Below are positions 26,685-49,092 of a DNA stretch of 64,000 bases, in pieces. Numbering within the stretch: position 1 is the first letter of the stretch; each line of letters starts with the position of its first letter. The notes under the pieces were generated by a model, which saw nothing but the letters and a program-made list of their open reading frames with translations, did not search any database and was not told the DNA's origin. The stretch is from positions 8,326 to 72,325 of the forward strand of contig CAWFYC010000033.1 of the NCBI GenBank assembly GCA_963819855.1. The letters run 5' to 3'. Made by a program: the position numbers and the translations under genes. The stretch comes from an uncultured Alphaproteobacteria bacterium. GTDB taxonomy: Bacteria; Pseudomonadota; Alphaproteobacteria; Acetobacterales; Acetobacteraceae.

Positions 26685-28462
26685 CCGGCCAGCCCAAGCG
26701 CGGTAAGTGCAGCGACGTTGATGCCCAGCGGGGTAAGTTGCGCCAGGTGCGGATTGAGCTGCGCCTTGGACCCGGTCTGCATGTTGGTGATCTGCTGGCG
26801 CGCCGCGGTGAGCTGATTGTTCGCCGTGGTGAGCTGACCGGTCACGGCGGTGAGCTGCGCGTTGGCGGCGGACAGCTGCTGGGTGGCATTCTGGTTCACT
26901 CGAGTCCAGTCGGCGATGATCGCGTCCGTCCTGGTCGGATCGGCGATGCCGCTCCCGGAGGCAACCCCGGCGGCGGTCAGTTGCGTCGCCACCTTCGCCA
27001 GCACGCCTTGCAACGCGGCCACCTGCGTCTGCGCTGCCTGTCGCTGCGTGTCCGCGGTGGCGGCGCGCGCATTGGCCGCGGCCAGCGCATCCTGTGCATC
27101 CTTCACCTGCTGGCGAAGCTGTACCAGCGCCGGATCATCCGGCGGCAGCCCGCTCGGCGGCTCGGTGAACCCGGCGGCCAGGCGCGCGACGGAGAGCCCG
27201 CCGATGCTGACATCGGGCTGCCGCAGCAGATAGCGCAGCGGCGCCTGCACCTGCGGCCACGCCCGCGTCCACGCATCGGCAGTAGTCGGCCGTGCGGGCG
27301 GTGGCAGCCGTCCCGGCAGGCGCAGGATCAGCGGATCGATCCGTGACAGTGCGATGGTCGGATAGGGCTGGAATGCGGCCGGTGCCGGTTGCGTGGGGGA
27401 GCCCTCCAATGCCCGCATCAGCAGGCCGAAATCGGCGGGCGCCAGCGGTGCCAGCACGATGACCTGCGCCGGCGCGCCTGACGCGAGGTCGATCGGCGGC
27501 AGCTTCATCGCCTCGCTGGTCAGCACGTTCAGCTCATCGGCGCGCACCGGCGCGATTGCCACCTCGATCTGCTCGGGGAAGAAGCTCTGTGCCCCATTGG
27601 CCGGATCGATCGCCGGCTTGGGCAGCGGACCCGCCGGTGGCAGCAGCGACAGGTAGTCCGTCGCGCGGAACGACGCACCGGGCGCCGCGGTGAGATCGGC
27701 GAACAGGGCGGCATAAGACCGCGCCAGGTCCTGCTGCACCAGGTTGTCGGCATCGAGCGGACGCAGCCCGTGCGTCACCAGCGACGCATCGAACCATACC
27801 GGAGTGCCGCGCCGCATTGCCACGACGCCGAGTGCCACGCAATCCGGCGGCAGCGACCGATCGATGCCGTTGCCGGCGAAACTGCGCGCCAGCGCGGCGC
27901 GTGCCTGGAATGTGTTGCCCGCCGGCAACGGCTGGCGCAGCGGCACCAGCGCGATCTCGACGAAGTCGGTAATGGTGTCGAAGCTGGTGGTGCGTCGGCT
28001 GGCCAGATCGCGCGGGAACACATCCGCCGCGCCGGTGCCGGTCTCGGTCAGCATCAGCACCACCGCATACAGCGCGTCACGAAACCCGACGAACGCGGTG
28101 TTGCGCGCCATCACCGCGCCCATGTCGGAGAGGTCGACCTGGAGCGGCTGGCCCGCCGCGCGGTTCAGCGTCAGCACGCGCCCGGACGGGGCGATGGCGC
28201 GTCCGCCGGCCACGTTCAGCACAGTGCCGGTCAGCGTGGCCTGAAGGCCGGAAATGATCCCGTCGCCCGCGGCGAGGCCGAGATCGAGCAACCGCCGATC
28301 GAGATAGGCGTAGTCGCGATCCAGGTCCTCGGCGGTCAGCAGACGGCCATCGAAGTAGTTGGTGCGGCTGAGCAGCGGTTCGCCATGCAGCACGCGCAGC
28401 ATCGTGTCGTCGACACCGGCCGCCGTGCTGATGGGGAGAGGACGGAATGTGTCGCTTGGCAT
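26681..28462 (-). CDS. Hypothetical eCIS protein (593 aa) with C-terminal coiled coil, paralog 2 of fibre-like triplet
   Basis: The N-terminal motif is YFDGRLLTAEDLDRDYAYLDRRLLDLGLAAGDGIISGL...LNVAGGRAIAPSGRVL. The C-terminus carries a Q/A/T heptad-like run (QQLSAANAQLTAVTGQLTTANNQLTAARQQITNMQ). Confidence 0.6.
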   Translation of the reverse strand: MPSDTFRPLPISTAAGVDDTMLRVLHGEPLLSRTNYFDGRLLTAEDLDRDYAYLDRRLLDLGLAAGDGIISGLQATLTGTVLNVAGGRAIAPSGRVLTLNRAAGQPLQVDLSDMGAVMARNTAFVGFRDALYAVVLMLTETGTGAADVFPRDLASRRTTSFDTITDFVEIALVPLRQPLPAGNTFQARAALARSFAGNGIDRSLPPDCVALGVVAMRRGTPVWFDASLVTHGLRPLDADNLVQQDLARSYAALFADLTAAPGASFRATDYLSLLPPAGPLPKPAIDPANGAQSFFPEQIEVAIAPVRADELNVLTSEAMKLPPIDLASGAPAQVIVLAPLAPADFGLLMRALEGSPTQPAPAAFQPYPTIALSRIDPLILRLPGRLPPPARPTTADAWTRAWPQVQAPLRYLLRQPDVSIGGLSVARLAAGFTEPPSGLPPDDPALVQLRQQVKDAQDALAAANARAATADTQRQAAQTQVAALQGVLAKVATQLTAAGVASGSGIADPTRTDAIIADWTRVNQNATQQLSAANAQLTAVTGQLTTANNQLTAARQQITNMQTGSKAQLNPHLAQLTPLGINVAALTALGLAG

Positions 28463-28488
28463 GGCAGCCTCCAGGAGGCGATCGGAGT

Positions 28489-29409
28489 TCAGGACGCGGC
28501 GATCGCCGACAGCAGCGCGTTCGGCCGCACGAACGGCCGGACCAGGTTGTTCAACGTCACATCGGTCACCGCCGGCGGCCTGGTCACATCGGTGGTCGCC
28601 ACGTGCACGCTGGCGAGCGCGACGCGGGCCGCATTGTCGAGCACGTCCGCCAGTCCGGGCACGTCGGGCCAGGCGGGCAGGGCGCGGTGCATCAGCCAGG
28701 CGTGCAGCGCCATCACGCTGCGCGTCGGTACATCGGCGATGCCGGCAAGGAACTGGGTCTCGCGCGGCGACAGCGGACCCGGGACGTCGGCAGCGGCGGG
28801 CGCACGGCGATCCTGTGTCCAGGCGCCGAACGGTCCGGCCACGGCGTCGGGTGCCTTGGTCGCGTCGGCGCGCAGTTCGAGCAGGAAGCTGTCGCCGACC
28901 CGGCTCGCCACCACCGGATCGATGCCCGAGTCGAACACCGGCGCCGCGGTCGGTGTCAGCCCGGTCGCCAGCGCCTGGCCGCGCACCGTCACGGTGAGGA
29001 ACAGCGTGCCGCTCGCAAGCGCCGATGCAAGCCCGGCAGGATTGTCGCGGTTGCGCGCCGCAAGCCAGTCGATCAGCGAAATCGAATAGGTTTCCGGCAC
29101 CAGGATCTCGCGGCCCAGGCCGTCGATCGCATAGCCCTGGGCGACCGTCAGCGTGATGTCGGTGGTTCCGCCCGAACGCGGCGCGGAGGCGATGCCCACC
29201 GCAAGGCCGAACACCGTGCCGGAGCCGGCCAGAAAGCGCTGATGCCGGTTGAGCCGCCGCCGGTGATACGCCTGCTCGGCATCCAGCGTCTCGGCGCCGA
29301 CCATGACGCCGGCCTGGAAGCTCACGCGCTCCAGCATGGAGAAGAAGTCGGCATCCCGCTTCACGTCCTGGCTGTCCAGATCGGCGGATTGGGTGACGGT
29401 GTCCGACAT
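28489..29409 (-). CDS. Hypothetical eCIS protein (306 aa), paralog 1 of fibre-like triplet
   Basis: The N-terminal motif is FQAGVMVGAETLDAEQAYHRRRLNRHQRFLAGSGTVFGL...LTVAQGYAIDGLGREIL. The start was chosen at the MSDTV ATG (29409), downstream of the preceding stop. Confidence 0.55.
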   Translation of the reverse strand: MSDTVTQSADLDSQDVKRDADFFSMLERVSFQAGVMVGAETLDAEQAYHRRRLNRHQRFLAGSGTVFGLAVGIASAPRSGGTTDITLTVAQGYAIDGLGREILVPETYSISLIDWLAARNRDNPAGLASALASGTLFLTVTVRGQALATGLTPTAAPVFDSGIDPVVASRVGDSFLLELRADATKAPDAVAGPFGAWTQDRRAPAAADVPGPLSPRETQFLAGIADVPTRSVMALHAWLMHRALPAWPDVPGLADVLDNAARVALASVHVATTDVTRPPAVTDVTLNNLVRPFVRPNALLSAIAAS

Positions 29410-29422
29410 GGCGTTCTCGCGT

Positions 29423-31912
29423 TTAGGGAGGAGCGATGTCACGGCCAGGATCCGCCGGCAGCAGCGTTCCCGGGTCGTGGATCACCGCATCGCGGCCGAT
29501 GCGGCTCTGGTTCAGTGTCACCGGGCTCGCCGGCGGTGGCGGATCGAGGAAGCTGTCGATGCCCAGCAGCGGAGACAGGCCGAGCACGAAACTGTGGTCG
29601 CTGTCGTAGGTGTCCCAGTGCAGATGCGCCGGCATCTCTGCCGCAAGCACGTTCTCCACCACTGGGCGCTGCTGGCGCGCCGCGCCGTGCAGCAGGATGG
29701 TCACGCGGTTGGCGTACTGGTCGAAGAAGCGCTGCACCGCCGCGGCTTCGTTGCGTCGCGCCAGCTCGGGGGCGAACAGCGCCAGAAATGCGCGGCCGGT
29801 CGCCGTGCTCAGCACCAGCGTGTCGCCGATCACGCTGTTGCCGCTGGCGCGGGCGTCCAGCGTCATCGGGTTGTCGTCATCCATCTCGATGCCGAGGATG
29901 GTCGCCATGGTTCGGCGCAGCCGGAAGTTCTCCACCACGACGATCTCGCCACGCCGCACCGCGCCGTCGGTGGCGACATCGAGTGCGAGGCAGACGCCGC
30001 GATAGGTACCGCGCCACTGCAACAGGGTGCCGGCGGTGGCGATGCTGCGACGCTGGCGCGCCTCCGGCCAGGAAGCATCGATCGATCGTCCGAGGAAACT
30101 GGCGAGCCAGGGCAGTGCGTTGACCGGCGCGGCCATCGGATCGAGCAGCAGTTCCGCCGCCGCCGCACGGCCCTCGATCGCGGTGAGCATGCCTTCGAGG
30201 TTCGCCAGCATGCGCTCGCGGAAGTCCGGCGGCAGCGCGCTTGGCGACTGGTCGGTGGTTTCGTCGGCTGACTGCGTCTGCTGGAACAGTTTCGGCAGGT
30301 ACTGCTGTTGATAGGAAAACCGTGGCGCATAGGCGCGACAGGCGAACATGCGCGGCGTATGTCGGCCGTCGCCGTTGAGCACGAACACCAGATCGAGCAT
30401 CCGTCCGGCCAGTCGGCGGTTGGCGCCGAGACTTCGTTGCAAAAGCACCTCGTACAGCGCGCCGGAATCGTCGGTGAGCGCCGGCAGGCCGGGATGGAAC
30501 GGCAGCTCGGACGCGATGCCGCTGGCTGTGAGGGGTGGCTGACGGTGCAGCGGCGCAGCGTTCAGTCGCGCGACGAACGGATTTAGCTGCTGTGCGGTCA
30601 CACCCTGAATGTCATGCACCGCATCGCCGCGCAGCGCGGTGGCGTCCTGCGGTTGCGCGAGCAGGTGGCGCAGCAGCCCGGTAATCAGCAGATTGGCGGC
30701 ATCGACCGGCGTGGCGGGATCGATCAGCGGATCGCCGCCGGCGCGTGCCCAGATCGCGATCCCGGTGCCACTCGGCAAATCGGCCTCGACGTAGGCACGA
30801 TGCCACACTGTGTCCGGATCGCTCGCCATCAGTCCGGAGCGCAGTGCCGCGCCGGCCGGCACGTAGCCGGGATGCGGCAGCGCGACCAGCGGGCGCGGCC
30901 GGTCCGCGGCGATGTAATAGACGGTGCCATCGGAGGTATCGGCGAAGCGCGGCGCTCCCGCGCTGCGGCGCGGGTAGCGTTCGCCGGCCAGCGCGAACCC
31001 GGCTGGGCCGATGGTGGCGACCGCGATGTCGCGCTGTACGAAGCCGGCGTCGCCTGCTTGTGCCGGCGCCAGCAATGCGACGCGGCCCTGATCGAGGCAC
31101 GCAATGTCGGTGAACACAGGCAGGTTGGTGCCCTCGATACTTGCCGGGATGGCGATGGTGTTCGGCGTCGCAGTCGCGCGATCGAGCAGCCAGATCACCT
31201 GTGCCAGCGACTGGCCCGTCCCCTGATTCAGCAGCAGTACGACACGACCGACGTCGGCCGAGATGCCGACCACCTGGCCGGCGGGGCGCGGCACACTGGC
31301 GACCTGACGCAAGGCGTTCGGTCCCAGGGTCGCCGGCGCGAACTGGTCTGGCGTGGGCACGATCGGCGCCACCGGCGCACCGCCCTCAACCACCAGCAGA
31401 GCGGTGCGACCGGCGACGAAAATCGCGCTATCCGGTGCCACCACGACATCGGTCGCGGCCGGATCGGCGTCCACCGGCAACGGCGGATTGTCCGGATCGT
31501 CCAGTGACCAGCGCTCGCGCAGATCGAACAGGCTGAGCAGCACGCCGCCGGCATCCCCCGACAACAGCGCAAGCCGGGCGCCGCCGAGCGATAGCGCCAG
31601 GAACCGTCCCCGTCGTGGCACCAGCGGTTTCTCGCCTGCATCGGCCACGGCTTGCCAGGTGCCGGCGACTTCGGCCTCGACCGACTGCCGGTCCGCGGTT
31701 AGCCGTCCGTAACGGCCGGCGGAATCGACCACCATGGTGGCGTCGATCGGCGCCGCCGGCTGTGACGGGTCCCGCGGCGGCAGCTTCCAGCTCTGCGCCC
31801 GGCGCAGCGCCAGTGCGCGAGTGTCCGCGCACCATGCGGTATCCACCAGACTGCCGGTGAAATCGGCCGGGTCCGCGATCAGTCGGAAGCTGGTTTGGTT
31901 GACGTCGCGCAT
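29423..31912 (-). CDS. Baseplate wedge protein, P2 gpI / Afp12-like (829 aa)
   Basis: The C-terminal part (LPWLASFLGRSIDASWPEARQRRSIATAGTLLQWRGTYRGVCLALD) matches the phage tail protein I pattern. A long N-terminal extension precedes it. The internal ATG at 31912 lies just after the baseplate-J stop. Confidence 0.65.
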   Translation of the reverse strand: MRDVNQTSFRLIADPADFTGSLVDTAWCADTRALALRRAQSWKLPPRDPSQPAAPIDATMVVDSAGRYGRLTADRQSVEAEVAGTWQAVADAGEKPLVPRRGRFLALSLGGARLALLSGDAGGVLLSLFDLRERWSLDDPDNPPLPVDADPAATDVVVAPDSAIFVAGRTALLVVEGGAPVAPIVPTPDQFAPATLGPNALRQVASVPRPAGQVVGISADVGRVVLLLNQGTGQSLAQVIWLLDRATATPNTIAIPASIEGTNLPVFTDIACLDQGRVALLAPAQAGDAGFVQRDIAVATIGPAGFALAGERYPRRSAGAPRFADTSDGTVYYIAADRPRPLVALPHPGYVPAGAALRSGLMASDPDTVWHRAYVEADLPSGTGIAIWARAGGDPLIDPATPVDAANLLITGLLRHLLAQPQDATALRGDAVHDIQGVTAQQLNPFVARLNAAPLHRQPPLTASGIASELPFHPGLPALTDDSGALYEVLLQRSLGANRRLAGRMLDLVFVLNGDGRHTPRMFACRAYAPRFSYQQQYLPKLFQQTQSADETTDQSPSALPPDFRERMLANLEGMLTAIEGRAAAAELLLDPMAAPVNALPWLASFLGRSIDASWPEARQRRSIATAGTLLQWRGTYRGVCLALDVATDGAVRRGEIVVVENFRLRRTMATILGIEMDDDNPMTLDARASGNSVIGDTLVLSTATGRAFLALFAPELARRNEAAAVQRFFDQYANRVTILLHGAARQQRPVVENVLAAEMPAHLHWDTYDSDHSFVLGLSPLLGIDSFLDPPPPASPVTLNQSRIGRDAVIHDPGTLLPADPGRDIAPP

Positions 31913-31920
31913 CGGCGCCC

Positions 31921-34083
31921 TCAGCAGCGTTCGGGCACGAACGGGACGGGGTAGATCGATGGCGCCGGCGGATCGTCCCAGGGCGGCGTCGGACCGGCCG
32001 GATCGCCGGTCACGCTGGCGGCGACGGCGGCGAGATCGGGCAGGCCGTACGGCGGCAGTGTTAGCGTGTCGAGCTGGGCGATCCATCCGGCACCTGCGGC
32101 GGCATAGATCGTCACCTGATCCACCGCCAGCACGCCGGGCACCCGGCTCGCCTGGGTCGCCAGTTCGTGCGGCGCGATCGGCCGGCCGATCGGCCAGCCC
32201 TGTTGCAGTGGCCCACCCGGCTCCAGTGGCCAGAGATATGCCACCAGCGCCTGTTCGACCGCGCGCAGCGTCGCGGTCCGCGTGGCCGGGTCGAGCAGCC
32301 GCACGGCGATCGCCACCCCGACCTGCACGTAATACGGCCCAAGTACGAACACCTGGGTGCCGATCAGCGTACGCTGGCGCAGCCAGTCGAACACCGGGCG
32401 CAGCACGCCCAGCGTGGGTCGCGGCGCGCCGCCGACGCGTGGTTCGGCCGGCGGGATGACGAACACCGACAGCGCGCCCGGTACGTCGAACCGGGTGGCC
32501 GCCGGATCGGCGCCGGGCATCATGCCGGACACCACCTCGGCGCGCGCGACATTGGCGCCGGGCACATTCTCGGCGAGGAAGCGGAAATCCTCGGCGGTGA
32601 CGGCGCGGTCGCGGTTGGCCAGGTAGGCCGGAATGCGCCGTTCCGCGGCAGCCACGGTCTCGCCCTCGGTGCCGCCGGCGGTGGGCCACTCATGGCGCAC
32701 GACGATGCCGCCACCGGCCGCGAGCTGCTTGATGCTGCCGGGCGCCAGATTGCCCGCCTGACCGCCGCCATATGCGTAGCGTCGCGCATACACCGCAGCG
32801 CCGTTCGGCACCCGCGCGCCCTGCATGCCGTCGCCGAACCGAACCGTCCCGGCAGCCGGATCGAGCACATACACCTGGTCGTCGCGACCGACGGCACCGA
32901 AGTGGTCGACCGCCAGCCAGGTGCTGGGCGGTGCCGCGGTGGTACCAACCGCAGGCGGCCAGACTTCGATGACCAGACTGGTGGGATCGACCGGGGCGAC
33001 GCGCAGGGAAAAGCTCTGATCCGTCTCGCCGGTGCCGATTCCGAGCAAGGCATCGCGCCCGATCGTCTGCGCGACGACGCCAACGGCGTTAACCCCAAGC
33101 CACGCCAGCGACAGTGCCGGATCGTCGGGTGAGGTTAGCCGCAGCCAGGCAATCAGCGATTCCGGCTTCACGTCCGCCGGCAGTTCTGGCGGGCTGGCAC
33201 CGAGACCGGCGTTCATCGGATCGGTTACCACTGGCAGTGTCAGCGCCGCGGCAGAGCGCGGCAGCTGAAGCTGCACCACGCCGAGTTTGCGCCCGCCGTT
33301 CGAGGTGTCGAGCAGCACCTCCAACTGCAGCCAGCGCAGCGAACCGTCCGCCGCGGTACTTGCGAGCGACCACACCAGACGGCGCGGCGGGGGATCGGTG
33401 ACCGCCTGGTCCATCGTGTCGTCCGGTGGGGCGACGCCGATCGACAGCGTGATGCCGCCGGCAAGCGTCTGGCGCAGCGCAGTCACATCGTCGGTGAGCT
33501 TCTGCGGCTTCACCAGCGCCAGATACAGCGCCTGATCCAGCGTGTTCGACAGTGTCAACGCGCCGTCCTGCAAGGCTCGCTGCGCGACGAACGGCGTCGG
33601 CGCGTCGATGCCGTAGAGTTCACGCAGCAGCGCGAGCGTGCTTTCGCGTTTGCTCGGGTCGGGCTCCTGGAATGGCGCCTTGATCATCGGCACCACGCCC
33701 AGCCAGGTCGGCTGGAGCTCCGTCGTGTTGGTGAACTGAGCCGGCGAACCGGTCGCGGTGAGCAGCGCCTGCTGCACCAGGATCGCCGGTGGCAACGCAC
33801 TGACCGGCGGCGCGTCGAGGCAGACGACGCCGCGTGCCGGGGTGGCGGGACGCATCGGGATCGCCAGCAGGTTGAGAAAGGCGCGCCGCTGACGCAGCGG
33901 GATCAGATTCTGCCGATACAGGATGGTCTCGGCGAGCCAGGCGAACAGATCGATCAGCGCGACGCCGGGATCACCTGGGTTGATCTGGGTCCATTCCGGC
34001 GTGTGCGCCTGGATGCGGTTGCGCGCTTCCTGGAACAGGTCCTCGAAACTTCGATCGTCCAGCGAGGGGACCGGCAGCGGCAT
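31921..34083 (-). CDS. Baseplate J-like protein (gp6/gpJ, Afp11-like)
   Basis: The N-terminus (LDDRSFEDLFQEARNRIQAHTPEWTQINPGDPGVALIDLFAWLAETILYRQN) is the classic baseplate-J opening. The product is 720 aa. Confidence 0.8.
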   Translation of the reverse strand: MPLPVPSLDDRSFEDLFQEARNRIQAHTPEWTQINPGDPGVALIDLFAWLAETILYRQNLIPLRQRRAFLNLLAIPMRPATPARGVVCLDAPPVSALPPAILVQQALLTATGSPAQFTNTTELQPTWLGVVPMIKAPFQEPDPSKRESTLALLRELYGIDAPTPFVAQRALQDGALTLSNTLDQALYLALVKPQKLTDDVTALRQTLAGGITLSIGVAPPDDTMDQAVTDPPPRRLVWSLASTAADGSLRWLQLEVLLDTSNGGRKLGVVQLQLPRSAAALTLPVVTDPMNAGLGASPPELPADVKPESLIAWLRLTSPDDPALSLAWLGVNAVGVVAQTIGRDALLGIGTGETDQSFSLRVAPVDPTSLVIEVWPPAVGTTAAPPSTWLAVDHFGAVGRDDQVYVLDPAAGTVRFGDGMQGARVPNGAAVYARRYAYGGGQAGNLAPGSIKQLAAGGGIVVRHEWPTAGGTEGETVAAAERRIPAYLANRDRAVTAEDFRFLAENVPGANVARAEVVSGMMPGADPAATRFDVPGALSVFVIPPAEPRVGGAPRPTLGVLRPVFDWLRQRTLIGTQVFVLGPYYVQVGVAIAVRLLDPATRTATLRAVEQALVAYLWPLEPGGPLQQGWPIGRPIAPHELATQASRVPGVLAVDQVTIYAAAGAGWIAQLDTLTLPPYGLPDLAAVAASVTGDPAGPTPPWDDPPAPSIYPVPFVPERC

Positions 34084-34086
34084 GGA

Positions 34087-34482
34087 TCAGCCGCCCGCCA
34101 GCGTGAGCGTCAACGCAAGCTGCGATGGCGGCGCGCCGACCACGGTTCGATCGCTGTAGCCGACATCGATCAGCACCGAGCCTGCGTCCGCCGGATCGGT
34201 ATCGACCGTGACCGCGAGCAGCGTGACACGATTCTCCCAGGTGGTGACCGCACGGGTGATCGCATCGGCGATCAACTGCCGCGTGGTCTCGGTGTTGGGC
34301 TGGTTGAGGAAGTCGCGCAGCCCGGCGCCGAAGCTTGGCCGCATCAGGCGCTCGCCGGGACTGGTGAGCAGCAGGTTCCACAGCGCCTCGCGCAGGCAGT
34401 CCTCGCCGCTGCTCCAATTCAGTGCGCCACCGGCGTCGGGCGCGCCGAGCGGCCAGCCCATCGGGGGTGCGAGCGCGCTCAT
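34087..34482 (-). CDS. GPW/gp25 family baseplate wedge protein (Afp9-like)
   Basis: The product is 131 aa and carries LREALWNLLLTSPGERLMRPSFGAGLRDFL, the gp25 signature. The start overlaps the upstream stop (ATGA). Confidence 0.85.
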   Translation of the reverse strand: MSALAPPMGWPLGAPDAGGALNWSSGEDCLREALWNLLLTSPGERLMRPSFGAGLRDFLNQPNTETTRQLIADAITRAVTTWENRVTLLAVTVDTDPADAGSVLIDVGYSDRTVVGAPPSQLALTLTLAGG

Positions 34483-36071
34483 GGCGAAGGTGCCTTGAAG
34501 TTCTTCGGCACCGGCAGGCAGATCTTCACGAACGGCAGCCAGAAGAACACGATGTTCAGCAGGTTGATGATGATCGACAGGATCAGCATCGCGCAGATCG
34601 TGATGATCGGAATGCTGAACGAGCAGATCATACCGAGTTGCAGGCCATTCGGCTGGTTGCCGTCGATGGTGTCCTGTACCGACTGCCTGCCGGTGAGCGA
34701 GTTGACCAGTCCAGCGAGCTTCGGTGGCATGGCAAACGCCGCGCCGCGCGCCATGCCGCGTTGCGCGTCATCCAGTTCCGGCATCTGGATCAGTACCGGC
34801 CGCGTGGCATCCGGATCGAAAGCAGTGGCCAGCACGAACGGCGCGCTGTAGTTGCCCCAGGTAATGCGCTCGCAACCATCCGGACGGATGGTGCGTACGA
34901 ACGGGCGCACCATGAACTGGGTGTCGCCTGGCGGATATTTCGGCACCGGGAACTGGCCGACGGCACTGGTCCATGCGGCGGCGAGGCGCAATTGCAGCGC
35001 GCTGCGCAGCGCCGCGGCATCGGTCTGGCTGACCAGCAGGCTGACATTCGCGGGGGCGAAGTCGGCGGGAAGCTGCACGCCGCTGGTCGGATCGGCATTG
35101 GTAAGCACCTTGCTGAGTGCCGATGCGAAATCCGTGTCTCGCACCAATGCGCCGAGGGTCAGCGGCGTACCGTTGACCGTGAATGGGTTTTGGCTCGCCC
35201 AGGTGCGTAGATCCGGTGCGGCCAGGGGCGATGGCGGGTCGATGTGGAATGCCAGACGGTCAAGGATCGTGAAGATCGCAGCGTTGTCGGTGCTCTGTTG
35301 CGCCGACGGATCGGCGAGCTGATAGCGGTTCAGCAGCATGCGCAGCAGCGCTGCCAACGGCGAATGCGCTTCGCCCTGTGCTACCTGCTGTTCGGTGTCG
35401 ATTGTCCAGGGCGGCGGTCCGTCGGGATGATTGAGCAGGCCGAACGGCCAGGGCAGTTCCTCCGGCAGATCGTTGGGGTTGGTCGCCGTGGCGGAAGGTG
35501 CGGTGTATTCCTCGCCGCCGATCGGCAGGTAGCCGAACAGCAGGGTGTGCGGGCGATCGCCCTGCGGCTGCACGAAACTGGCATGCAGAGGATACACTTC
35601 CTCGCCGGTGTAGCCGGGCCGCGCGGGTAGCTGCGGCAGTTTCACGCCATAGCTTTGCAATTGTCGGCTGGCATCCGGATCGGCTGTCTCGTCGATGGTC
35701 TGCCAGCCGGCGGGGCGGCCGCGTACCTGACGGAACCCCTTGATGCCATCCTTCTGCCGTGACCGCACCACGAAGCCGGCGGACGCGATCTTCTCGGGAC
35801 CGAGCGCCGGGCTGCCGGGAAGCTTGCAGGCGATCTCGGCGGCGACCAGATGAAACGTGCGGTGGATCGGCCGGCGCAGCTTCAGCAGCAGGCCGGTGCT
35901 GTCGCGATCCTGCTGTTCCCAGCTCAGCAGATCGGGACTGGCGTCCAGCACGTCGTTGTTGAAGCGGTCGATGAAGTCGGCATCGAAATAGCGGTGCAAC
36001 GCCACCTCGCGGCCGGCCGCGTACCACGGCTTGCGGAACGTCACGTCGTGCTCGGCGGGGACAGCTACCAT
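34479..36071 (-). CDS. Hypothetical 530-aa eCIS protein with C-terminal hydrophobic anchor
   Basis: The gene sits between the spike and gp25 genes and is coupled at both ends. The C-terminus (GMICSFSIPIITICAMLILSIIINLLNIVFFWLPFVKICLPVP) is strongly hydrophobic and is encoded by a visibly A+T-richer stretch. I recognise no family. Confidence 0.6.
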   Translation of the reverse strand: MVAVPAEHDVTFRKPWYAAGREVALHRYFDADFIDRFNNDVLDASPDLLSWEQQDRDSTGLLLKLRRPIHRTFHLVAAEIACKLPGSPALGPEKIASAGFVVRSRQKDGIKGFRQVRGRPAGWQTIDETADPDASRQLQSYGVKLPQLPARPGYTGEEVYPLHASFVQPQGDRPHTLLFGYLPIGGEEYTAPSATATNPNDLPEELPWPFGLLNHPDGPPPWTIDTEQQVAQGEAHSPLAALLRMLLNRYQLADPSAQQSTDNAAIFTILDRLAFHIDPPSPLAAPDLRTWASQNPFTVNGTPLTLGALVRDTDFASALSKVLTNADPTSGVQLPADFAPANVSLLVSQTDAAALRSALQLRLAAAWTSAVGQFPVPKYPPGDTQFMVRPFVRTIRPDGCERITWGNYSAPFVLATAFDPDATRPVLIQMPELDDAQRGMARGAAFAMPPKLAGLVNSLTGRQSVQDTIDGNQPNGLQLGMICSFSIPIITICAMLILSIIINLLNIVFFWLPFVKICLPVPKNFKAPSP

Positions 36072-36718
36072 ATGTTGCCTGCTCCGGGCGTGTAGCTGGT
36101 GCCGACCACCGAGTTGGCGATCAACGTGTCGCACTGCACCACGCCGCTGAATTTCGACATGCCGGCATTGACGTTCACCGTCGCGGCGGAGACGGACACC
36201 GTCGCCGCGTTCACCTTGACCTGCGACGCAGCGGTAAGATCGATGTCGGTCGCGGTGACCTGTAGTGTCGTGGTGCCGATTGTAATGGTGCACTGGCCGC
36301 CGGAGCCGTCGGTGAGCGTCACCGTGTTGCCGGCCGGTGTGGTGATGGTGACGTTCGGGCCACCCTGGTCATCAAACACCGCCGCCATTCCCGACGGCAT
36401 GGTGATCGAATAGCGGTCCTGCGCCGGCGTCGCCTTGCTGGGTTCGCTTTGCCCGCCCGACCAGACGGCGCCGATCACGAACGGCTGTTCGGGTGTCAGG
36501 AACGCGACCAGCACGATCTCGTTCAGCTTCGGCAGACAGGCGACGCCATAGCCCTGTCCCGCGGATGGCACGACGACGCTGGCCCAGATCTCGACATCGA
36601 GCGCCAGCATGTTGAGCTTGATGCGCCCGCGGCCTTCAGGGTCTTTGTTGTCCGTCACCTGTCCGAGCGCCAGACCGGCGCCGCGGGTGATCAGGTGACC
36701 GGAGATATCGCCATCCAT
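36065..36718 (-). CDS. Spike protein, phage baseplate assembly protein V / gp5-like (VgrG C-half equivalent)
   Basis: The OB-fold signature is GQVTDNKDPEGRGRIKLNMLALDVEIWASVVVPSAGQGYGVACLPKLNEIVLVAF. The C-terminus has a beta-helix-like VxVxA repeat. Confidence 0.85.
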   Translation of the reverse strand: MDGDISGHLITRGAGLALGQVTDNKDPEGRGRIKLNMLALDVEIWASVVVPSAGQGYGVACLPKLNEIVLVAFLTPEQPFVIGAVWSGGQSEPSKATPAQDRYSITMPSGMAAVFDDQGGPNVTITTPAGNTVTLTDGSGGQCTITIGTTTLQVTATDIDLTAASQVKVNAATVSVSAATVNVNAGMSKFSGVVQCDTLIANSVVGTSYTPGAGNIW

Positions 36719-36727: not shown

Positions 36728-37774
36728 CTAATTCCAATAGCCGCGTGCGATGCGCGCGTAGGTTTCGTAGCCGTTCGCCAGGCTGAAGTGATGCACCGTG
36801 GCGAGCACGTCGTAGCTGCCGAGCAGCCGTGGCGACACACCGGCCAGCTTCACCGCGCCACCATTCACCACCGCTGCATTGCCGACGCAGACCAGATCAC
36901 CGGCGAGGAAGCGCAGGCCGCGATCGTCGAATGCAGCGGCAGCGAAGTTGTTCGCCTGTCCGGAGGTGGCGGGAAATGGGTCGGCGAAGATCTCCTCGGC
37001 CGGCCAGCCAAGACCGCTGACGATCTGCGCTGCCGCGGTGCCCTGCGGCGTGACTCGTAGCTGCGTCGCCTGGCCGTTGGTTGCGGAACCTGCCGAAAGG
37101 TCCCAACCGTTCACGCGCGCGGTGGCCGGCTGGCGTGCCAGATCGGCAAGCAGCCGCACGCGGCGCAGCGTGTCGCCGCTGTTGAGTTCGACCGGCACCG
37201 GCGGCGGATCGGCCAGCCGGCAGATCAGCCTGCTGCCCTCGCAGCGCAGCCGCGCGCCATAATCGTGCGCCAACCGCCGCACCAGGGCGAGATCGCTTTC
37301 ATTCAACTGATGCCAGGTGCCCGGTTCGCTCGACAGGCGCGTGTCCGCGCTCAGTCCCGCATCGGCCGCGATCGATTGCACGATGGCGTCGGGGCTCTGC
37401 CGTTCCAGCACCCGGTTGCGCCGCTTGCGCGCCATCCGGTGCAGCATGTCGTCGGCCAGCAGCACAAGCTGCGGCGCGCCGTCGCCGTAGCGCTCCTCGA
37501 GCGCGGTGATCTCGCCCTGGAACAGCTTGCGCTCGGCATCGAGCCCGAATGACAGGGTCAGCTTGTCGCCCAGCCTGATGTCGTTGAACAGGAACGCCGG
37601 CTCGCCTCCGGTGGCGGGCGGTCCCCAGTTCACCACGCGCAGCTCGGCTGACATCGTCGCCTCAAATGGCGCGCGCACAATCGCTTCCAGCAGGTTCTGC
37701 CCGAACGCATCGCTGGTTGCACCGTTGATGCTGACGCTGGGTCGGCTGGAGACGAAGCTGCCGCCGTCGGCCAT
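36728..37774 (-). CDS. Phage late control D-like hub protein (gp27 / VgrG N-half equivalent)
   Basis: The product is 348 aa, and KLFQGEITALEERYGDGAPQLVLLADDMLHRMARKRRNRVLERQSPDAIVQSIAADAGL follows the gpD/VgrG N-domain pattern. Confidence 0.7.
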   Translation of the reverse strand: MADGGSFVSSRPSVSINGATSDAFGQNLLEAIVRAPFEATMSAELRVVNWGPPATGGEPAFLFNDIRLGDKLTLSFGLDAERKLFQGEITALEERYGDGAPQLVLLADDMLHRMARKRRNRVLERQSPDAIVQSIAADAGLSADTRLSSEPGTWHQLNESDLALVRRLAHDYGARLRCEGSRLICRLADPPPVPVELNSGDTLRRVRLLADLARQPATARVNGWDLSAGSATNGQATQLRVTPQGTAAAQIVSGLGWPAEEIFADPFPATSGQANNFAAAAFDDRGLRFLAGDLVCVGNAAVVNGGAVKLAGVSPRLLGSYDVLATVHHFSLANGYETYARIARGYWN

Positions 37775-37775
37775 C

Positions 37776-37934
37776 TCAGTCGACCTTCAGGCGCAGCCGT
37801 CGATCGGCTGCGGTCTGTGCATCGACCAGTTGGTCAGCGAGCGACGGCGGCCGAGGGGGCTGTACCTGCGTCGCCGATGGTTGTGCGGTTTGCGGCGCGG
37901 TCTCGATCAGCAGTTCATCGATCAGGATCGGCAT
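37776..37934 (-). CDS. Small 52-aa eCIS ORF, DUF5908/Afp6-like (below ORF-track cut-off)
   Basis: My manual translation is MPILIDELLIETAPQTAQPSATQVQPPRPPSLADQLVDAQTAADRRLRLKVD. It exactly fills the gap between two eCIS genes. The MPIxIxEL opening resembles my memory of Afp6/Pvc6-type proteins. Confidence 0.45.
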   Translation of the reverse strand: MPILIDELLIETAPQTAQPSATQVQPPRPPSLADQLVDAQTAADRRLRLKVD

Positions 37935-37939: not shown

Positions 37940-38755
37940 CTAACCCGACGTGAGTTGGGCGGGAGCGTCGGCGGAGAAGGCGCCGGGAATATTGGTGCCG
38001 AGATCAGCTGAGGCGCCTGAACTGAACCCCGCGCTGGCGGACGCATCGGCGCTGACTCCGAACGAGGCCGATGCGCCGGCCGAGACGCTGGCGCCGATCG
38101 CCAGCGACCCGCCGGTGAAGCGTGGCGTTTCCAATCCGTTCAGCATCGCTTGTGCACGCCAGGTGCCGGGATCCAATCCGGCCGCCTGCATCGATGGCGC
38201 GAGCGGCACTCCCGGAGGTGCCGCCAAAGCCTGCGGCCCCGGCGGCGCCCAGTTGTCGAGCTTCGCCTTGTAGCGGTTCTCGGCCAACGACAGGCTGACG
38301 CTGGCGCGCAACGGCACACCCGCCGCAGCGAAAAAATCCAGTGTTTCGCTCATGCTTTCCACCAGGCCGTTGAAGCTGAACGTGCCCCAGACGAACATCA
38401 GGCTGCGTGCCGCGGGCGGTTTGGTGTCGCCCTGTTTGGGCGGCGGGCGGATGAACAGATCCACCAGCTTCTGGGTGATCTTGCGGACGTCGGCATTCTT
38501 CTGCTTCGTCTGATAGTCGAGCGTGGTGTCGAACAGCAGATCGAGCGTGAGCTTGGCCGCGCCGGTATCGACGAGTTGCGCCGGCTGCGAGGAACTGCCG
38601 CTGCCTTTGGTGTCCGCCTGGAGATTGTTGGTGCGCTGCACACGCAGCGTTTCCGGGTTGAAATGCACTGCCATTTGATTCGCCGTATCCGGCTGCCCGC
38701 TGGTGGCATCGACCGGAAGGATCAACGCGCGCTGGAACTGGAGGCTGCCTGACAT
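37940..38755 (-). CDS. CIS tube-initiator-like protein (Afp7-like N-domain, no LysM), 271 aa
   Basis: The N-terminus (LILPVD...MAVHFNPETLRVQRTNN...AKLTLDLLFDT) resembles CIS tube-fold N-domains. The C-terminal third is Ser/Ala/Gly low complexity. I see no LysM motif. Confidence 0.5.
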   Translation of the reverse strand: MSGSLQFQRALILPVDATSGQPDTANQMAVHFNPETLRVQRTNNLQADTKGSGSSSQPAQLVDTGAAKLTLDLLFDTTLDYQTKQKNADVRKITQKLVDLFIRPPPKQGDTKPPAARSLMFVWGTFSFNGLVESMSETLDFFAAAGVPLRASVSLSLAENRYKAKLDNWAPPGPQALAAPPGVPLAPSMQAAGLDPGTWRAQAMLNGLETPRFTGGSLAIGASVSAGASASFGVSADASASAGFSSGASADLGTNIPGAFSADAPAQLTSG

Positions 38756-38764: not shown

Positions 38765-39217
38765 CTAGGTCGGTTCGCGTGAAACGTCTTCGAACACGAG
38801 CTGCACCTCTTCCACCGCGACCTGGCTGGCGGTTGCCGACAGATCGGGTGACTTGAACTTGATCGGCAGCACGTTGAGCAACTTCCAGGAAGCGACCACG
38901 TTCGGACCGCCATCCATCACGTCGATCTGACCTTGCAGGCGCACGCCGAAATTCTCGCGGCCGGCCACCAGATCGAGCCAGCGCCAGAGGTCGCTCGATG
39001 CGGTCATGCCGCGCTTCAGCGTGATGCTGCCGAACGCCACCGGGCCGACGCGCTGTGTGGCGCCGGTGTTGCGTCCGCCCTCGCGGATGGTGCGCGGCGT
39101 CATGGTAGCCTCGATGCCGGTGGCCTCGCTGAACAGGCCGCCGCACAGCGGGTCCGGCGACACATCGGCGCTGTAGAGATTGACCCGGTAGCGGAAGGCG
39201 ACGAACGCATCGCTCAT
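38765..39217 (-). CDS. Phage tail tube protein paralog 2 (Afp5-like)
   Basis: The product is 150 aa and carries FRYRVNLY...GLFSEATGIEATMTPRTIREGG...GSITLKRGMTASSDLWRWL, a pattern parallel to the tube protein at 40616-41068. Confidence 0.8.
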   Translation of the reverse strand: MSDAFVAFRYRVNLYSADVSPDPLCGGLFSEATGIEATMTPRTIREGGRNTGATQRVGPVAFGSITLKRGMTASSDLWRWLDLVAGRENFGVRLQGQIDVMDGGPNVVASWKLLNVLPIKFKSPDLSATASQVAVEEVQLVFEDVSREPT

Positions 39218-40615: not shown

Positions 40616-41068
40616 CTATTCGTACTCGATCTTTTCCACCGACAGCACCAGTTCCTCCATCGCCACATCGCCGCCGCCCTTGGCGGTAAGCGTGGGGCCG
40701 GTCCATTTCAGCGGCATCGCGCCGCGCAGCCGCCAGGTGGCGACCGGGTTCCGGCCTTCGTCCAGCAGCGTGACAGTGACCTCGCGCTTGAAGTCCTGCG
40801 TGTCGCGCTCGCGAAGCTGTTCGATCCACTGCCAGATATCGTCGGAAGCCATCAGCCCGCGCTTCAGCGTGACGTCGCCCGTCTTGTAGACGCCGGGCAG
40901 CTTGCGCGTGTGGTTCTCCATGTCGTTGCCGGTGCGGTACTCGGCCACCGTGATCTCGGTGTTGAGGCCGCTGACCTCGCTGAAACCGGCTCGCGGCTCG
41001 CGTCCCTGGCCGGGCAGCAACTCCACCAGGAAGTTGAAGGCGGAGTACGGGGTCTGACGAAACTGCAT
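40616..41068 (-). CDS. Phage tail tube protein paralog 1 (T4 gp19 / Afp1-like)
   Basis: The product is 150 aa and carries FNFLVELLPG...GFSEVSGLNTEITVAEYRTGND...KLPGVYKTGDVTLKRGLMASDDIWQWI, the canonical contractile-tail tube pattern. Confidence 0.85.
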   Translation of the reverse strand: MQFRQTPYSAFNFLVELLPGQGREPRAGFSEVSGLNTEITVAEYRTGNDMENHTRKLPGVYKTGDVTLKRGLMASDDIWQWIEQLRERDTQDFKREVTVTLLDEGRNPVATWRLRGAMPLKWTGPTLTAKGGGDVAMEELVLSVEKIEYE

Positions 41069-41093: not shown

Positions 41094-43241
41094 CTAGCTG
41101 CTGGCGGTGATCTGGCCGATGCGGAAGATGACGAATTCGGCGGGGCGCAACGGCGCGACGCCGATCAGGCACACCAGCCTGCCGTTGTCGAGATCGTTCT
41201 GCGTCATCGTGGTACGATCGCAGCGCACGAAATACGCCGATTCCGGCTTCGAGCCGAGCAGATGTCCGTTGCGCCATTCCGAGTAGAGGAAGTCCGACAC
41301 CGTGGCTTGCACGTTCGCCCACAGCGCCTCGCCGTTTGGTTCGAACACCACCCAGCTGGTCGAATCGTCGATCGAGTGTTCCAGGAACATGAAGTAGCGC
41401 CGCACATTCACGTAACGCCAGTCCGGATCGTCGGACAGCGTGCGTCCGCCCCACACGCGGTAGCCGCGATTGGCGAAGAAGCGCAGGCAGTTGATGCCAA
41501 GCGGGTTCAGCACCTCCTGCTGAAATGTGTTGACATACAGTTCGAGCCCTGTGGCGCCCTGGATCACTTCGTTCGCCGGCGCCTTGTGCACGCCGCGCTG
41601 TACGTCGGTATCGGCATAAAGTCCGGCCATGAAGCCGCTTGGCGGCAGAATCACGTCGCCGACGCCGTCCGGCGATGCCGCCTTCACCCACGGGTAGTAT
41701 AGCGCCAGGCGTGTGTCCGAGAGCTGTGCGCGGAACGCCTGCACATCGGCGACCGACGAGCCCGGACCCGCTTCGATGATTCCGATGCGATAGCGCATCT
41801 TGGTGCAGTGCTGCTGCATCGCGATGACCGTGCCGAGATGCGCGGCGGGGTCGGCGGCGGCGGCAGGGCAGACCACCATGGATATTTCGTCGATGTCCTC
41901 GAGTGCGGCGAGTCCATAGCTGCCGAGCTGATCGTTCATCTCGCCGATATAGTCGGCGACGATCGGCGAGCTGCCGTCGCTGCCGCCGGTCAGATGGATC
42001 ACCAGTTGCGGCGTCGCGGCGGGATTGGCCGGTGCGAGCAGCGCGGGATCGAACGCATTGACCAGCGCTGCCCAGACATCACTCGCGCTATGCACCGGTG
42101 CGCCATAGCTTACCGCGATCGGCTGGGTGAGTTGGTCCGAGGAACGTACCGGATGCGTCGGCAACACGGTGCCGAGACTGACCGGCGCGTTGATCTCCAG
42201 CGACACGCCCTGAACACTGTAGATCAGCGTGCCGTTGCGCTGCACGCTGATGTCGAAGGCGTCGTGGAACAGCGGTCCGGCAGCACCTGGACCAGGTGCC
42301 AGGTCGGCCCCCGCCAGCGCGAGCGGCAATTGCGTGTCGACGGCGACGGATGCGTTCAGCGCGTGCGGAAAGGTGAGCGTGCTGCCGTCGGTGCTCGCCG
42401 TTGCATAGAAGGTGGCCAGTGTGCTGGTTGCTCCCAGATATTGCGCCAGTGCCGGCCCGCCGGGAATGCTGTAGAGCGGCGCGTTGCCCAGGCCCGCCGT
42501 GTTGAGCGCTGCCTTGCGCGCACCATCGCGCACGTTTTGATCCGAGGTGATGGACGCCGCGAAGTTGGGGACATCGACCAGGTGGGCGTTACCGGTGCTA
42601 TCGACAAAGAAGATTCGCTGGCCGGTCTCGAACACGTAGCGGTCGGGATTGCTGGCGTCGGCCGGCACATGCTGTGCCAGCGCCACGAGTTTTTGTAGCG
42701 GGAATAGCGCATCGGCAAGGCCGGCGACGGGCGTGTTGAGCTGCGCCTTGCGCACCTGCGACAGTCGCAGCAGCACGACGTCGGCATCGGAGGATGAGGC
42801 CGACAGCGACAGCAGGCTGGCGCTGCGACGCGGCGCGAACACCACGTCGAGATTGCCGCCGGTGCCGGGGAAGCGCGCCTGGAACAGCACGCTGGCGGCG
42901 GTACCCTGCTGCAGGACACGCGGCGCGGTTGCGGTCGCGGCGGCGGCATCGGGGCGTGCGACGCGGCCGACGTAGATCATCTGTCCGCCGTTGTCGAAGA
43001 ACGCGCGGACCGACAGTGCGGTATAATTCGGTGCGCTGGTGCCACCCAGGGACAGGTTCGCCAGGTCGCCGAAATTGTTCTGGTAGTCGGCCAGGCTGGT
43101 GCACAGCACCGGCCTGCCACGCACCTGGCCGAACCGTGTTGGCCCGACGATGGCGGCAACCGACGTACTGGCACCTTCAATCGTCTTCTGTCGAAAGCTG
43201 GTCTCCTCGACATAGACGCCCGGTGCGAGATATTCCGGCAT
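41094..43241 (-). CDS. Contractile tail sheath protein (715 aa)
   Basis: The N-terminus is MPEYLAPGVYVEETSFRQKTIEGASTSVAAIVGPT. The C-terminus (GINCLRFFANRGYRVWGGRTLSDDPDWRYVNVRRYFMFLEHSI...FEPN) matches the sheath pattern. GGTGGAGA lies upstream of the ATG. Confidence 0.9.
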   Translation of the reverse strand: MPEYLAPGVYVEETSFRQKTIEGASTSVAAIVGPTRFGQVRGRPVLCTSLADYQNNFGDLANLSLGGTSAPNYTALSVRAFFDNGGQMIYVGRVARPDAAAATATAPRVLQQGTAASVLFQARFPGTGGNLDVVFAPRRSASLLSLSASSSDADVVLLRLSQVRKAQLNTPVAGLADALFPLQKLVALAQHVPADASNPDRYVFETGQRIFFVDSTGNAHLVDVPNFAASITSDQNVRDGARKAALNTAGLGNAPLYSIPGGPALAQYLGATSTLATFYATASTDGSTLTFPHALNASVAVDTQLPLALAGADLAPGPGAAGPLFHDAFDISVQRNGTLIYSVQGVSLEINAPVSLGTVLPTHPVRSSDQLTQPIAVSYGAPVHSASDVWAALVNAFDPALLAPANPAATPQLVIHLTGGSDGSSPIVADYIGEMNDQLGSYGLAALEDIDEISMVVCPAAAADPAAHLGTVIAMQQHCTKMRYRIGIIEAGPGSSVADVQAFRAQLSDTRLALYYPWVKAASPDGVGDVILPPSGFMAGLYADTDVQRGVHKAPANEVIQGATGLELYVNTFQQEVLNPLGINCLRFFANRGYRVWGGRTLSDDPDWRYVNVRRYFMFLEHSIDDSTSWVVFEPNGEALWANVQATVSDFLYSEWRNGHLLGSKPESAYFVRCDRTTMTQNDLDNGRLVCLIGVAPLRPAEFVIFRIGQITASS

Positions 43242-43264: not shown

Positions 43265-44023
43265 TTATGCTTCCAGAGTCGCGAACGGTACGCTGGGATC
43301 CGTTGCAGTCAGGATCTGACCGCGCGTGAAGGGGATGGTGACCGAATCGGTGAATCCGCCGGTTGCGCCGAGCCGCAGCTTGCGCGCGGCCAACGCGTCG
43401 GGATCGGTGATCGGTGTCGGTTGCGGGTGCGTCGCCGGGGTGACGACGGTCATCGTCAACTGGTCCGTCGCACTGGACGCAGGCGGTGGTGGCAGTCCGC
43501 GCATCGCCACCAGCAGATCGCCCTGTTGGTTCGCCTGGCCGGAGAAGGTGAAGGTCTTGCCGGTCCGCATACAGGTGAGCGTGGCGATCGCCCAGGCCGC
43601 GGCCGCACCGTCGGCATAGAGCAGTCTGACCGCGAGGCCGCCGGCCTCGTCGAAGCGCGTCGTGACCGTGCTGCGATACAGCGGCACGTAGGCGATCCGA
43701 TCGGCGTTCAGCGGCACCGAGAAGAGTCGAGGATGAAACCGACCGTCGCGCGACGTTACCTGCCCGCTCACTGTGATCGGTGCGCTGAACGGCGGCGTCG
43801 TGAGTTCGTCCGGCGTCGGCATATGGTCATAGAAGATCGGCTCCATGAGCAGCACGATGCCGCGTGGATCGGCGCGCCAGGTGATCTTGTCCGGCAGCGC
43901 GCCAGTAACGCGCGCATCCAACAGCGGCGGCGGGCCGCCGATCGCGCGCCGGCCCGGCGGGCCGAACAGCAGCGCCTCGGCCCAGAACACCGCGCCGGCA
44001 GCGGGGAAGCGATTGGCTTCCAC
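43265..44023 (-). CDS. Hypothetical eCIS protein (252 aa)
   Basis: The GTG start lies 2 nt after the DUF4255 stop and the gene is co-directional. I recognise no motif. Confidence 0.5.
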   Translation of the reverse strand: MEANRFPAAGAVFWAEALLFGPPGRRAIGGPPPLLDARVTGALPDKITWRADPRGIVLLMEPIFYDHMPTPDELTTPPFSAPITVSGQVTSRDGRFHPRLFSVPLNADRIAYVPLYRSTVTTRFDEAGGLAVRLLYADGAAAAWAIATLTCMRTGKTFTFSGQANQQGDLLVAMRGLPPPPASSATDQLTMTVVTPATHPQPTPITDPDALAARKLRLGATGGFTDSVTIPFTRGQILTATDPSVPFATLEA

Positions 44024-49077: not shown

Positions 49078-49092
49078 CAAGGGAGACGAGCA

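Follow-up and report, generated by a model that had tools for sequence, protein, structure and literature searches.

The locus described here raises the question of what is encoded beside the spike of a contractile injection system (CIS) in which no PAAR protein is found. The window analyzed is the whole stretch of 64,000 nucleotides taken from an uncultured Alphaproteobacteria bacterium of the Acetobacteraceae (contig CAWFYC010000033.1, positions 8,326 to 72,325 of the forward strand, assembly GCA_963819855.1). The gene in question, here called X, encodes a protein of 530 amino acids (aa) and lies between the genes for the spike and the gp25-like wedge protein of the baseplate. An original prediction, made from the DNA letters and translated reading frames, took X for a membrane-anchored protein in the PAAR slot. 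In the analysis below, X appears to be a core subunit of a widespread CIS lineage, carrying a hydrophobic C-terminal tail that is more conserved than the rest of the protein. The favored reading, which is given a probability of about 0.4, is that X would be a C-tail-anchored inner-membrane subunit that oligomerizes and docks the baseplate, in the manner of TssL in type VI secretion systems (T6SS).

The reading frame and both of its junctions are as predicted. The ATG start of X (36071) lies within ...ATATGGTAG / ...AACATATGGTAG..., where TGG-TAG is the end of the spike gene, and with the spike stop codon at 36065-36067 the two genes overlap by 7 nt. The TGA stop of X (34479) sits in GCCATGAGC, where the ATG is the start of gp25, giving an overlap of 4 nt. 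A longer reading of 604 aa from GTG 36293 was rejected, as it runs through the spike gene and the homologs (521-557 residues) align from the ATG. Thus, 530 aa is the correct length.

The Afp/PVC numbering assigns afp8 to the spike, afp9 to gp25 and afp10 to PAAR (PMC6899500). As the text of Chen et al. 2019 (PMC6899500) describes lineage II of the extracellular contractile injection systems (eCISs), subtype IIb has afp8 split into gp27 and gp5 open reading frames (ORFs), a single afp11 and divergent afp12 and afp13; afp6 is kept, and afp10 is "solely absent". The locus in the window fits this description of a lineage-II, subtype-IIb-like eCIS in its gene content. VgrG is split, with Phage_GPD (36728-37774) and Phage_base_V (36065-36718) in separate genes as in subtype IIb, and the core set of tube, sheath, LysM-type initiator, gp25, single Baseplate_J, AAA ATPase and Pvc16/Afp16 cap is present. 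A separate PAAR gene that could complete the spike was not detectable in the window, either in Pfam and NCBIfam scans or in a regular-expression scan of the six frames, which gave no multi-motif PAAR ORF; this agrees with subtype IIb being the lineage-II subtype described as lacking afp10 (PMC6899500). Each lineage-II subtype is also described as having two or three conserved specific genes without a known domain (PMC6899500, dbeCIS). To judge by that wording, X is very probably one of these unnamed genes, although the passages of Chen et al. that define the subtypes (PMC6899500) hold no description of an X-like protein, of a membrane-type tail or of such a position.

The placement of X in a PAAR slot is right in one respect and inexact in another. 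X does lie between spike and gp25, and it resembles PAAR (Afp10/Cis10/gp5.4) in being encoded beside spike and gp25 in the sole lineage-II subtype without PAAR. However, because gp25 (afp9) lies between spike (afp8) and PAAR (afp10), the Afp/PVC PAAR gene follows gp25 whereas X precedes it, so that X adjoins the PAAR position. X was also rejected as a PAAR homolog. It has no PF05488/DUF4150 match, no PAAR motif and no PAAR-like fold, and with 530 aa against ~100 it is about five times larger.

A word-indexed search with X returned 111 proteins, all annotated as "hypothetical" and without Pfam domains. The matches range from full-length ones at 45-55% identity in Acetobacteraceae (Rhodopila, Paracraurococcus) to tail-only matches in 650-720-aa proteins of Burkholderiales. 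The longer branch (P0079-P0111; Burkholderiales and others, 650-720 aa) has large insertions in the globular domain and, some 20 residues ahead of the tail, a further conserved motif, DLVLSVLPWPFHKDL. One 621-aa metagenome protein (P0004), 88% identical to X, joins roughly the first three quarters of X to a gp25 domain and has no tail; it is probably a frameshift or assembly artifact, but could be a natural tail-less variant. In a profile search of 1.84 billion cluster representatives (clusters defined at 50% identity), 1,893 relatives pass E≤1e-3, of which 1,087 also pass E≤1e-30, and nearly all match over their full length. Two tail peptide patterns, derived with a 10-sequence alignment, place relatives in at least 275 species-level genomes. 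Among the 80 genomes listed, the carriers include Methylomonas, Thalassolituus, Marinobacter, Hahella, Teredinibacter, Cellvibrio and Chromatiaceae, together with Sphingomonadales, Rhizobiaceae, Burkholderiales, Desulfobulbales, Opitutales and other Verrucomicrobiota, one planctomycete, one cyanobacterium and one myxobacterium; all 80 hosts are diderm bacteria.

Gene order was compared by mapping iterated profiles of the locus proteins onto 83 genome loci. The order is the same throughout: cap, 252-aa gene, sheath, tube, second sheath, tube, initiator, hub, spike, X, gp25, Baseplate_J, Tail_P2_I and fiber-like genes. Spike, X and gp25 follow one another directly in 73 of the 83 loci, and the other 10 look like sorting artifacts of overlapping stop-to-stop ORFs or contig edges. 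The 7-nt overlap of spike and X recurs in 19 of 76 related loci, most of the others having a gap of at most 13 nt, and the 4-nt overlap of X and gp25 recurs in 22 of 80. When loci were instead reached through homologs of the spike, the list of which is filled by members of the same lineage (≥50% identity), X, complete with its tail, again lay between spike and gp25 in the three that were sampled (a contig with an NCBI-named Cellvibrio japonicus spike, Thioalkalivibrio nitratireducens DSM 14787 and Plasticicumulans acidivorans). Seven "viral" contigs of IMG/VR (14-22 kb) with X are fragments of the same injection-system cluster genes. X was assigned the position between spike and gp25 in all 93 loci examined (83 genome, 7 IMG/VR and 3 spike-sampled), and its homologs are found in contractile-injection loci only. 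Searches of 50,697 phage records and of 72,556 plasmids gave no match; a phage tail component was rejected on the phage records and on the nature of the IMG/VR matches. With its constant position and tight junctions across loci, X appears to be a core subunit of the lineage and not cargo.

The same constancy bears on the view that X is a spike-loaded pore-forming effector, that is, a toxin encoded beside the spike. Many T6SS effectors are encoded next to vgrG, X is immediately downstream of the spike, and its hydrophobic C-terminal segment would be capable of membrane insertion. However, effectors vary between loci, whereas X keeps its position across 93 loci in several phyla and diverges along with the core. 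No immunity-like gene adjoins it, and a separate eCIS_core/DUF4157 protein occupies the usual effector position. A toxin is thus very improbable.

X was modeled with AlphaFold2 using a 53-sequence alignment (mean pLDDT 81.7). Residues 10-420 form a mixed alpha/beta globule with pLDDT mostly above 90; in the alignment, L65, C82, R103, W123 and E157 of this domain are invariant, and a motif FDPDAxRPxxIxMP is conserved at residues 417-431. The linker that follows has a pLDDT of 46-65, with low confidence spanning residues ~441-486, many gaps and low conservation, and residues 487-514 are predicted as a single long helix (pLDDT ~85). The fold has no recognizable neighbor: Foldseek gave nothing below E=0.2 in the PDB (to April 2026) and nothing below E=0.1 in BFVD, phmmer against the PDB gave nothing better than E=0.3, while the adjoining spike readily matches 7aef and 7b5h, and the family has no match in Pfam (E≤0.01), NCBIfam or PHROGs. 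A hit to PHROG 31008 over the tail (E=0.08) was judged to be noise from hydrophobic composition. As neither phmmer nor Foldseek finds a PDB match, X is not a diverged copy of any baseplate subunit of a solved injection system (AFP, PVC, AlgoCIS, tCIS, CIS-Sc). A tape-measure protein was also rejected, as the model is a compact alpha/beta globule and not an extended helical protein.

The tail of X (residues 480-522, GMICSFSIPIITICAMLILSIIINLLNIVFFWLPFVKICLPVP) is a strongly hydrophobic segment of about 42 residues, which bears out the hydrophobic character predicted for the last ~45. The Kyte-Doolittle (KD) maximum over 19 residues is 2.67 in the tail, whereas the rest of X stays at or below 0.91 and the other locus proteins at or below 2.17; the Wimley-White octanol sum comes to -17 kcal/mol for the best 19-mer. 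In a hydrophobicity scan of the locus proteins, the tail is the sole strong membrane-type segment. It is also the most conserved segment of the protein, with a mean column identity of 0.75 over residues 481-500 and 0.64 over 501-520, against ~0.4 overall. Per-position conservation, computed over 102 and 252 homologs, gives the family motif S-F-S-[IL]-P-x-I-T-I-C-A-M-x-x-L-x-I-x-x-x-L-L-[ND]-x-x-[FL]-x-W-x-[PA]-[WFY]-x-x-I-C-[LF]-P-x-P. Within it, three residues do not vary (S486, A494 and W511), Asn and Asp alone occur at position 506, and C483, C493, C518, P488, P520 and P522 are each conserved at 0.89 or above. Of 256 family members, 252 keep the motif, and with it the membrane-type helix seen in hydrophobicity and in the model, at their extreme C-terminus. 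Few residues follow the C-L-P-x-P (median 6, 5th-95th percentile 3-11, maximum 15), and these average +2.1 K/R against 0.24 D/E. None of the 256 members has a signal-peptide-like N-terminus, and only three have a further segment above KD 1.8.

The tail coincides with a dip in base composition, as had been predicted from an A+T-richer stretch: the G+C content is 0.55 over 34475-34700 and ~0.66 in the surroundings (window ~66.5%). GC1/GC2/GC3 are 0.32/0.30/0.98 for codons 481-524 and 0.69/0.49/0.80 for the remaining codons of X. Foreign DNA was rejected as the source, since GC3 is 0.98 and the A+T richness is confined to codon positions 1 and 2. The dip thus reflects amino-acid choice: the segment uses codons for Ile, Leu, Phe and Asn, with codon usage typical of the host.

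As far as can be told from sequence, the layout of the family is that of a C-tail-anchored membrane protein. The conservation of the tail exceeds what a passive anchor would need, and points to a specific oligomeric or partner-binding role. Given the invariant mid-helix Asn/Asp and the conserved Ser, Thr, Cys and Ala, helix-helix packing would be expected and not passive anchoring. Alternatively, the helix might be purely structural and buried in the baseplate (a three- or six-helix bundle around or under the spike, a plug or part of a cage), its likeness to a membrane helix being due to its place in a protein core. Most faces are conserved, and so are Pro, Trp and three Cys, which would be more usual for a packed core than for a helix in contact with lipid; X is strictly conserved as a core subunit, and spike cages are known in AlgoCIS, tCIS and SalCIS (PMC8894136, bioRxiv 2025.06.01.657177). 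However, a tail anchor classically looks as this segment does, with some 40 nearly all hydrophobic residues, an aromatic belt and flanking basic residues, all at the very C-terminus behind a flexible linker, and a buried helix would have no need to be followed by as few as 3-11 residues (225 sequences). A helix that never meets a membrane is therefore considered distinctly unlikely.

An oligomerizing type of membrane helix would also suit a holin-like release or lysis factor that lets finished particles out, and the window has no recognizable lysis cassette. Against this, a conserved globular domain of 440 residues is unlike holins, as are the placement in the baseplate operon, the translational coupling to spike and gp25 and the stoichiometric co-expression with structural genes. 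A role in lysis is hardly credible.

For the favored reading, we infer insertion in the membrane, topology, oligomerization, partners and a membrane-attached mode of action, as follows. X would be the additional core subunit that defines this PAAR-less, split-VgrG (subtype-IIb-like) lineage. The ~440-residue domain of X would fold in the cytoplasm, where X, co-translated with spike and gp25 from tightly joined cistrons, would bind the center of the baseplate. A flexible linker of ~40 residues would join this domain to the C-terminal tail anchor, in keeping with the low-confidence region that separates the globule from the confident helix at 487-514 in the model. The helix would be inserted post-translationally into the inner membrane of the producer, with the N-terminus inside and only 3-11 residues crossing. 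There it may pack into a specific homo-oligomer, three- or six-fold to match spike or baseplate, by way of polar and small residues (the mid-helix Asn/Asp, Ser, Thr, Cys and Ala). X would then keep the baseplate, whether complete or still being built, oriented with its spike toward the membrane.

TssL belongs to a membrane dock for a baseplate that contains gp25/TssE. It is a C-tail-anchored T6SS subunit that is inserted post-translationally by YidC (PMC3426401). X is predicted to share its layout, in which a cytoplasmic domain precedes a single C-terminal membrane helix and a very short translocated tail. However, X has no DotU-type domain (no Pfam or NCBIfam match and no Foldseek match in the PDB) and is ~2.5 times larger; it is encoded between spike and gp25 and not in a membrane-complex operon, with no TssM or TssJ encoded alongside.

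Several observations weigh against docking at the membrane of the producer. The residues C-terminal to the helix are basic, and the positive-inside rule would put these in the cytoplasm, contrary to an N-in/C-out tail anchor; a basic end is, however, also seen in some known tail anchors of bacteria. The locus keeps three fiber-like proteins and a DUF4157/eCIS_core protein, features that are usual for released particles. No TssM- or TssJ-like membrane, periplasmic or outer-membrane partner is encoded in the locus. The conservation of the tail shows no clear 100-degree helical periodicity (strongest power at 160-170 degrees), which weakens the argument for an oligomer. Finally, the near-invariant end of the spike could equally mean that X binds the spike tip. 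The original prediction of a membrane anchor with attached action is partly supported: the refuting conditions that were run (on the helix, on the CIS-only homologs and on the lack of PAAR in the window) all came out in its favor, while the fibers and the eCIS_core protein suggest released particles. It is further weakened because the tail is conserved beyond the needs of a passive anchor, the slot argument is inexact and X has neither motif nor fold of PAAR.

The last 31 residues of the spike (residues 187-217, MSKFSGVVQCDTLIANSVVGTSYTPGAGNIW) have a column conservation of 0.72-0.97 against 0.4-0.6 for the remaining spike (79 loci, several phyla), and close with a nearly invariant YTPGAGNIW. 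The best sequence matches of the spike in the PDB are the C-terminal halves of the VgrG proteins of AlgoCIS (7aef) and tCIS (7b5h), and the last 31 residues have no counterpart there. Either this end forms an apex sufficient in itself, and the loss of PAAR would be explained, or it binds a conserved partner, with X as the obvious candidate.

The second possibility leads to a model in which X sits on the particle at or around the spike as a functional stand-in for PAAR, its helices shielded until firing and then entering the membrane of the target. The basic C-terminus would end on the cytoplasmic side of the target, and X would aid penetration, tip release or channel formation. The X gene comes directly after the spike with a 7-nt overlap, PAAR is absent, the lineage-specific spike end is conserved as if it bound a constant partner, and the charge distribution suits C-terminus-first entry from outside. 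The fiber-like and eCIS_core proteins suggest a released particle, and the extreme conservation of the helix suits a mechanistic membrane role. However, one to three copies of a 50-kDa globular domain would blunt a piercing tip, and a flexible 40-residue linker resembles a tether and not a rigid tip. X has no PAAR motif or fold, no chaperone-like gene that might shield a hydrophobic segment of 42 residues is evident beside it, and such a component is seen in no solved contractile system (phmmer and Foldseek against the PDB). Insertion into the target is thus a doubtful explanation, but it is the main rival of the favored reading.

Docking of the baseplate by X also has a stronger form, in which X alone would be the membrane complex of a new class of cell-attached systems in diderms, three or six copies assembling by way of the tail into a ring or gate in the inner membrane, directly before the spike. 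This is unlikely. If true, subtype-IIb "eCISs" would be T6SS-like machines that need no TssJLM, adapted to fire through that gate both by having lost PAAR and by the lineage-specific end of the spike.

In other CISs, a membrane-attached or membrane-triggered action is linked to a different protein each, and these proteins are proposed to hold the machine at the membrane. They are the Cis13 helix and Cis12 of the Anabaena tCIS (PMC8894136), CisA of Streptomyces, a bitopic membrane protein with an external domain (PMC12237407), and two more. SalCis19 of Salmonella salamae has 3 membrane helices and a periplasmic hydrolase (bioRxiv 2025.06.01.657177), and the haloarchaeal Hbor_38620 has 6 membrane helices (PMC11566945). 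All resemble X as lineage-conserved membrane-type proteins encoded in or beside the cluster. However, they are not homologous to X, they are encoded at the periphery of the cluster (fiber position, downstream or upstream) whereas X lies between spike and gp25, and none is reported to have a hyper-conserved helix. X also differs from the prePAAR/Eag-dependent effectors of the T6SS. Those carry PAAR, N-terminal membrane helices and a variable toxin domain next to an Eag (DUF1795) gene, whereas X has no PAAR, a C-terminal helix, spike and gp25 as neighbors and a constant position across its lineage. No description of the X family or of any characterized subtype-IIb system was found in the literature. 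The locus may thus be that of a CIS with a previously undescribed, centrally encoded, tail-anchored core subunit, the anchoring being as tentative as stated at the outset.

Table 1. Positions in the window of the injection-system genes and of the parts of X.
Feature	Position	Strand	Basis
Whole injection-system locus, Pvc16_N cap to eCIS_core protein	16035-47207 (approximate, ~31 kb)	-	Pfam and NCBIfam scans
Pvc16_N cap	44026-44616	-	Pfam/NCBIfam
252-aa unknown, between cap and sheath	43265-44023	-	without family match
Sheath	41094-43241	-	Pfam/NCBIfam
Tube	40616-41068	-	Pfam/NCBIfam
Second, degenerate sheath-like gene, 484 aa	39214-40668	-	weak PHROG tail-sheath matches, no Pfam match
Tube	38765-39217	-	Pfam/NCBIfam
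CIS_tube initiator	37940-38755	-	Pfam/NCBIfam
Conserved 52-aa ORF between tube initiator and hub	37776-37934	-	ORF
gp27/gpD-like hub (one half of split VgrG), 348 aa	36728-37774	-	Phage_GPD
gp5/gpV-like spike (other half of split VgrG), 217 aa	36065-36718	-	Phage_base_V, E=1e-16
Spike residues 187-217, lineage-specific near-invariant end	36068-36160	-	column conservation
Spike stop / X start, 7-nt overlap ATGGTAG	36065-36071	-	sequence
Gene X, 530-aa core protein (putative) of uncharacterized family	34479-36071	-	ORF and translation, ATG start
X residues 1-440, globular alpha/beta domain without known fold	34752-36071	-	AlphaFold2, Foldseek, alignment
X residues 441-480, Gly/Ser/Pro/Asn-rich linker of variable length	34632-34751	-	low pLDDT, gaps in alignment
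X residues 481-522, hydrophobic tail; helix 487-514 flanked by CSFS and KICLPxP	34506-34631	-	hydrophobicity, AlphaFold2, conservation
X residues 523-530 (KNFKAPSP) and stop, short basic C-terminal tail	34479-34505	-	sequence, family comparison
X stop / gp25 start, 4-nt overlap ATGA	34479-34482	-	sequence
gp25-like baseplate wedge protein, 131 aa	34087-34482	-	GPW_gp25, E=2e-20
Baseplate_J (gp6/Afp11-like), 720 aa	31921-34083	-	Pfam
Tail_P2_I-containing baseplate protein (Afp12-like)	29423-31924 (31924 approximate)	-	Pfam
Three fiber-like proteins (317, 593 and 1204 aa), CIS13-like N-terminal domain	23070-29442	-	weak NCBIfam CIS13_fam match
632-aa unknown	21700-23598	-	ORF
AAA ATPase	19760-21754	-	Pfam/NCBIfam
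1311-aa eCIS_core protein	16035-19967	-	PF13699 (formerly DUF4157) at residues 204-276

The remaining genes of the locus show some further features. The 252-aa gene, which nearly all related loci keep between cap and sheath, is a further lineage-specific core gene. Counterparts of the second sheath-like gene in other loci are 491-1041 aa long, some with clear sheath domains. The 52-aa ORF has no family match, but six other loci have a called gene of 53-56 aa in the corresponding place; the ORF may represent the afp6 kept in subtype IIb according to Chen et al. The three consecutive CIS13-like proteins look like paralogous fiber-like proteins, the 593-aa one having a Gln/Ala-rich, coiled-coil-like C-terminal region, and these genes are uniformly 82-91% identical to those of the closest related locus. 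The 1311-aa protein has nothing recognizable besides eCIS_core and is a probable cargo or effector. The flanks of the locus are ordinary chromosomal and housekeeping genes (ABC transporters, transaldolase and others). At one edge, a 218-aa ORF (47726-48379, plus strand) joins pieces of the N-terminal and C-terminal domains of transketolase; it looks like a truncated transketolase remnant and adjoins the transaldolase gene (49078-50166). Just past the effector end, genes like P450 and like animal heme peroxidase (13083-15982, plus strand) form an unusual pair for a bacterial chromosome.

Systems described as "extracellular" have repeatedly been found to be membrane-attached, each by way of a different lineage-specific membrane protein, and X is a testable candidate for a fifth, independent solution to attachment. 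The theme of lineage-specific membrane adaptors is thus already established; X is made a worthwhile object of study by its central position, the extreme conservation of the helix, the novel fold, the size of the family and the existence of culturable hosts. X is unusual in being encoded at the center of the baseplate operon and in having a membrane-type helix that is more conserved than its globular domain. The subtype is widespread: the species genomes with X, at least 275 in number, belong to Proteobacteria, Desulfobulbales, Verrucomicrobiota, Planctomycetota, Cyanobacteria and Myxococcales. Cultured hosts include Cellvibrio japonicus, Methylomonas and Marinobacter, and the gene is carried, among others, by Methylomonas methanica R-45363, Thalassolituus maritimus DSM 24913 and Marinobacter xiaoshiensis. 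If X instead inserts into the target, it would provide a new answer to how a spike without PAAR crosses a membrane. On either reading, the large protein family that X defines merits both naming and a solved structure.

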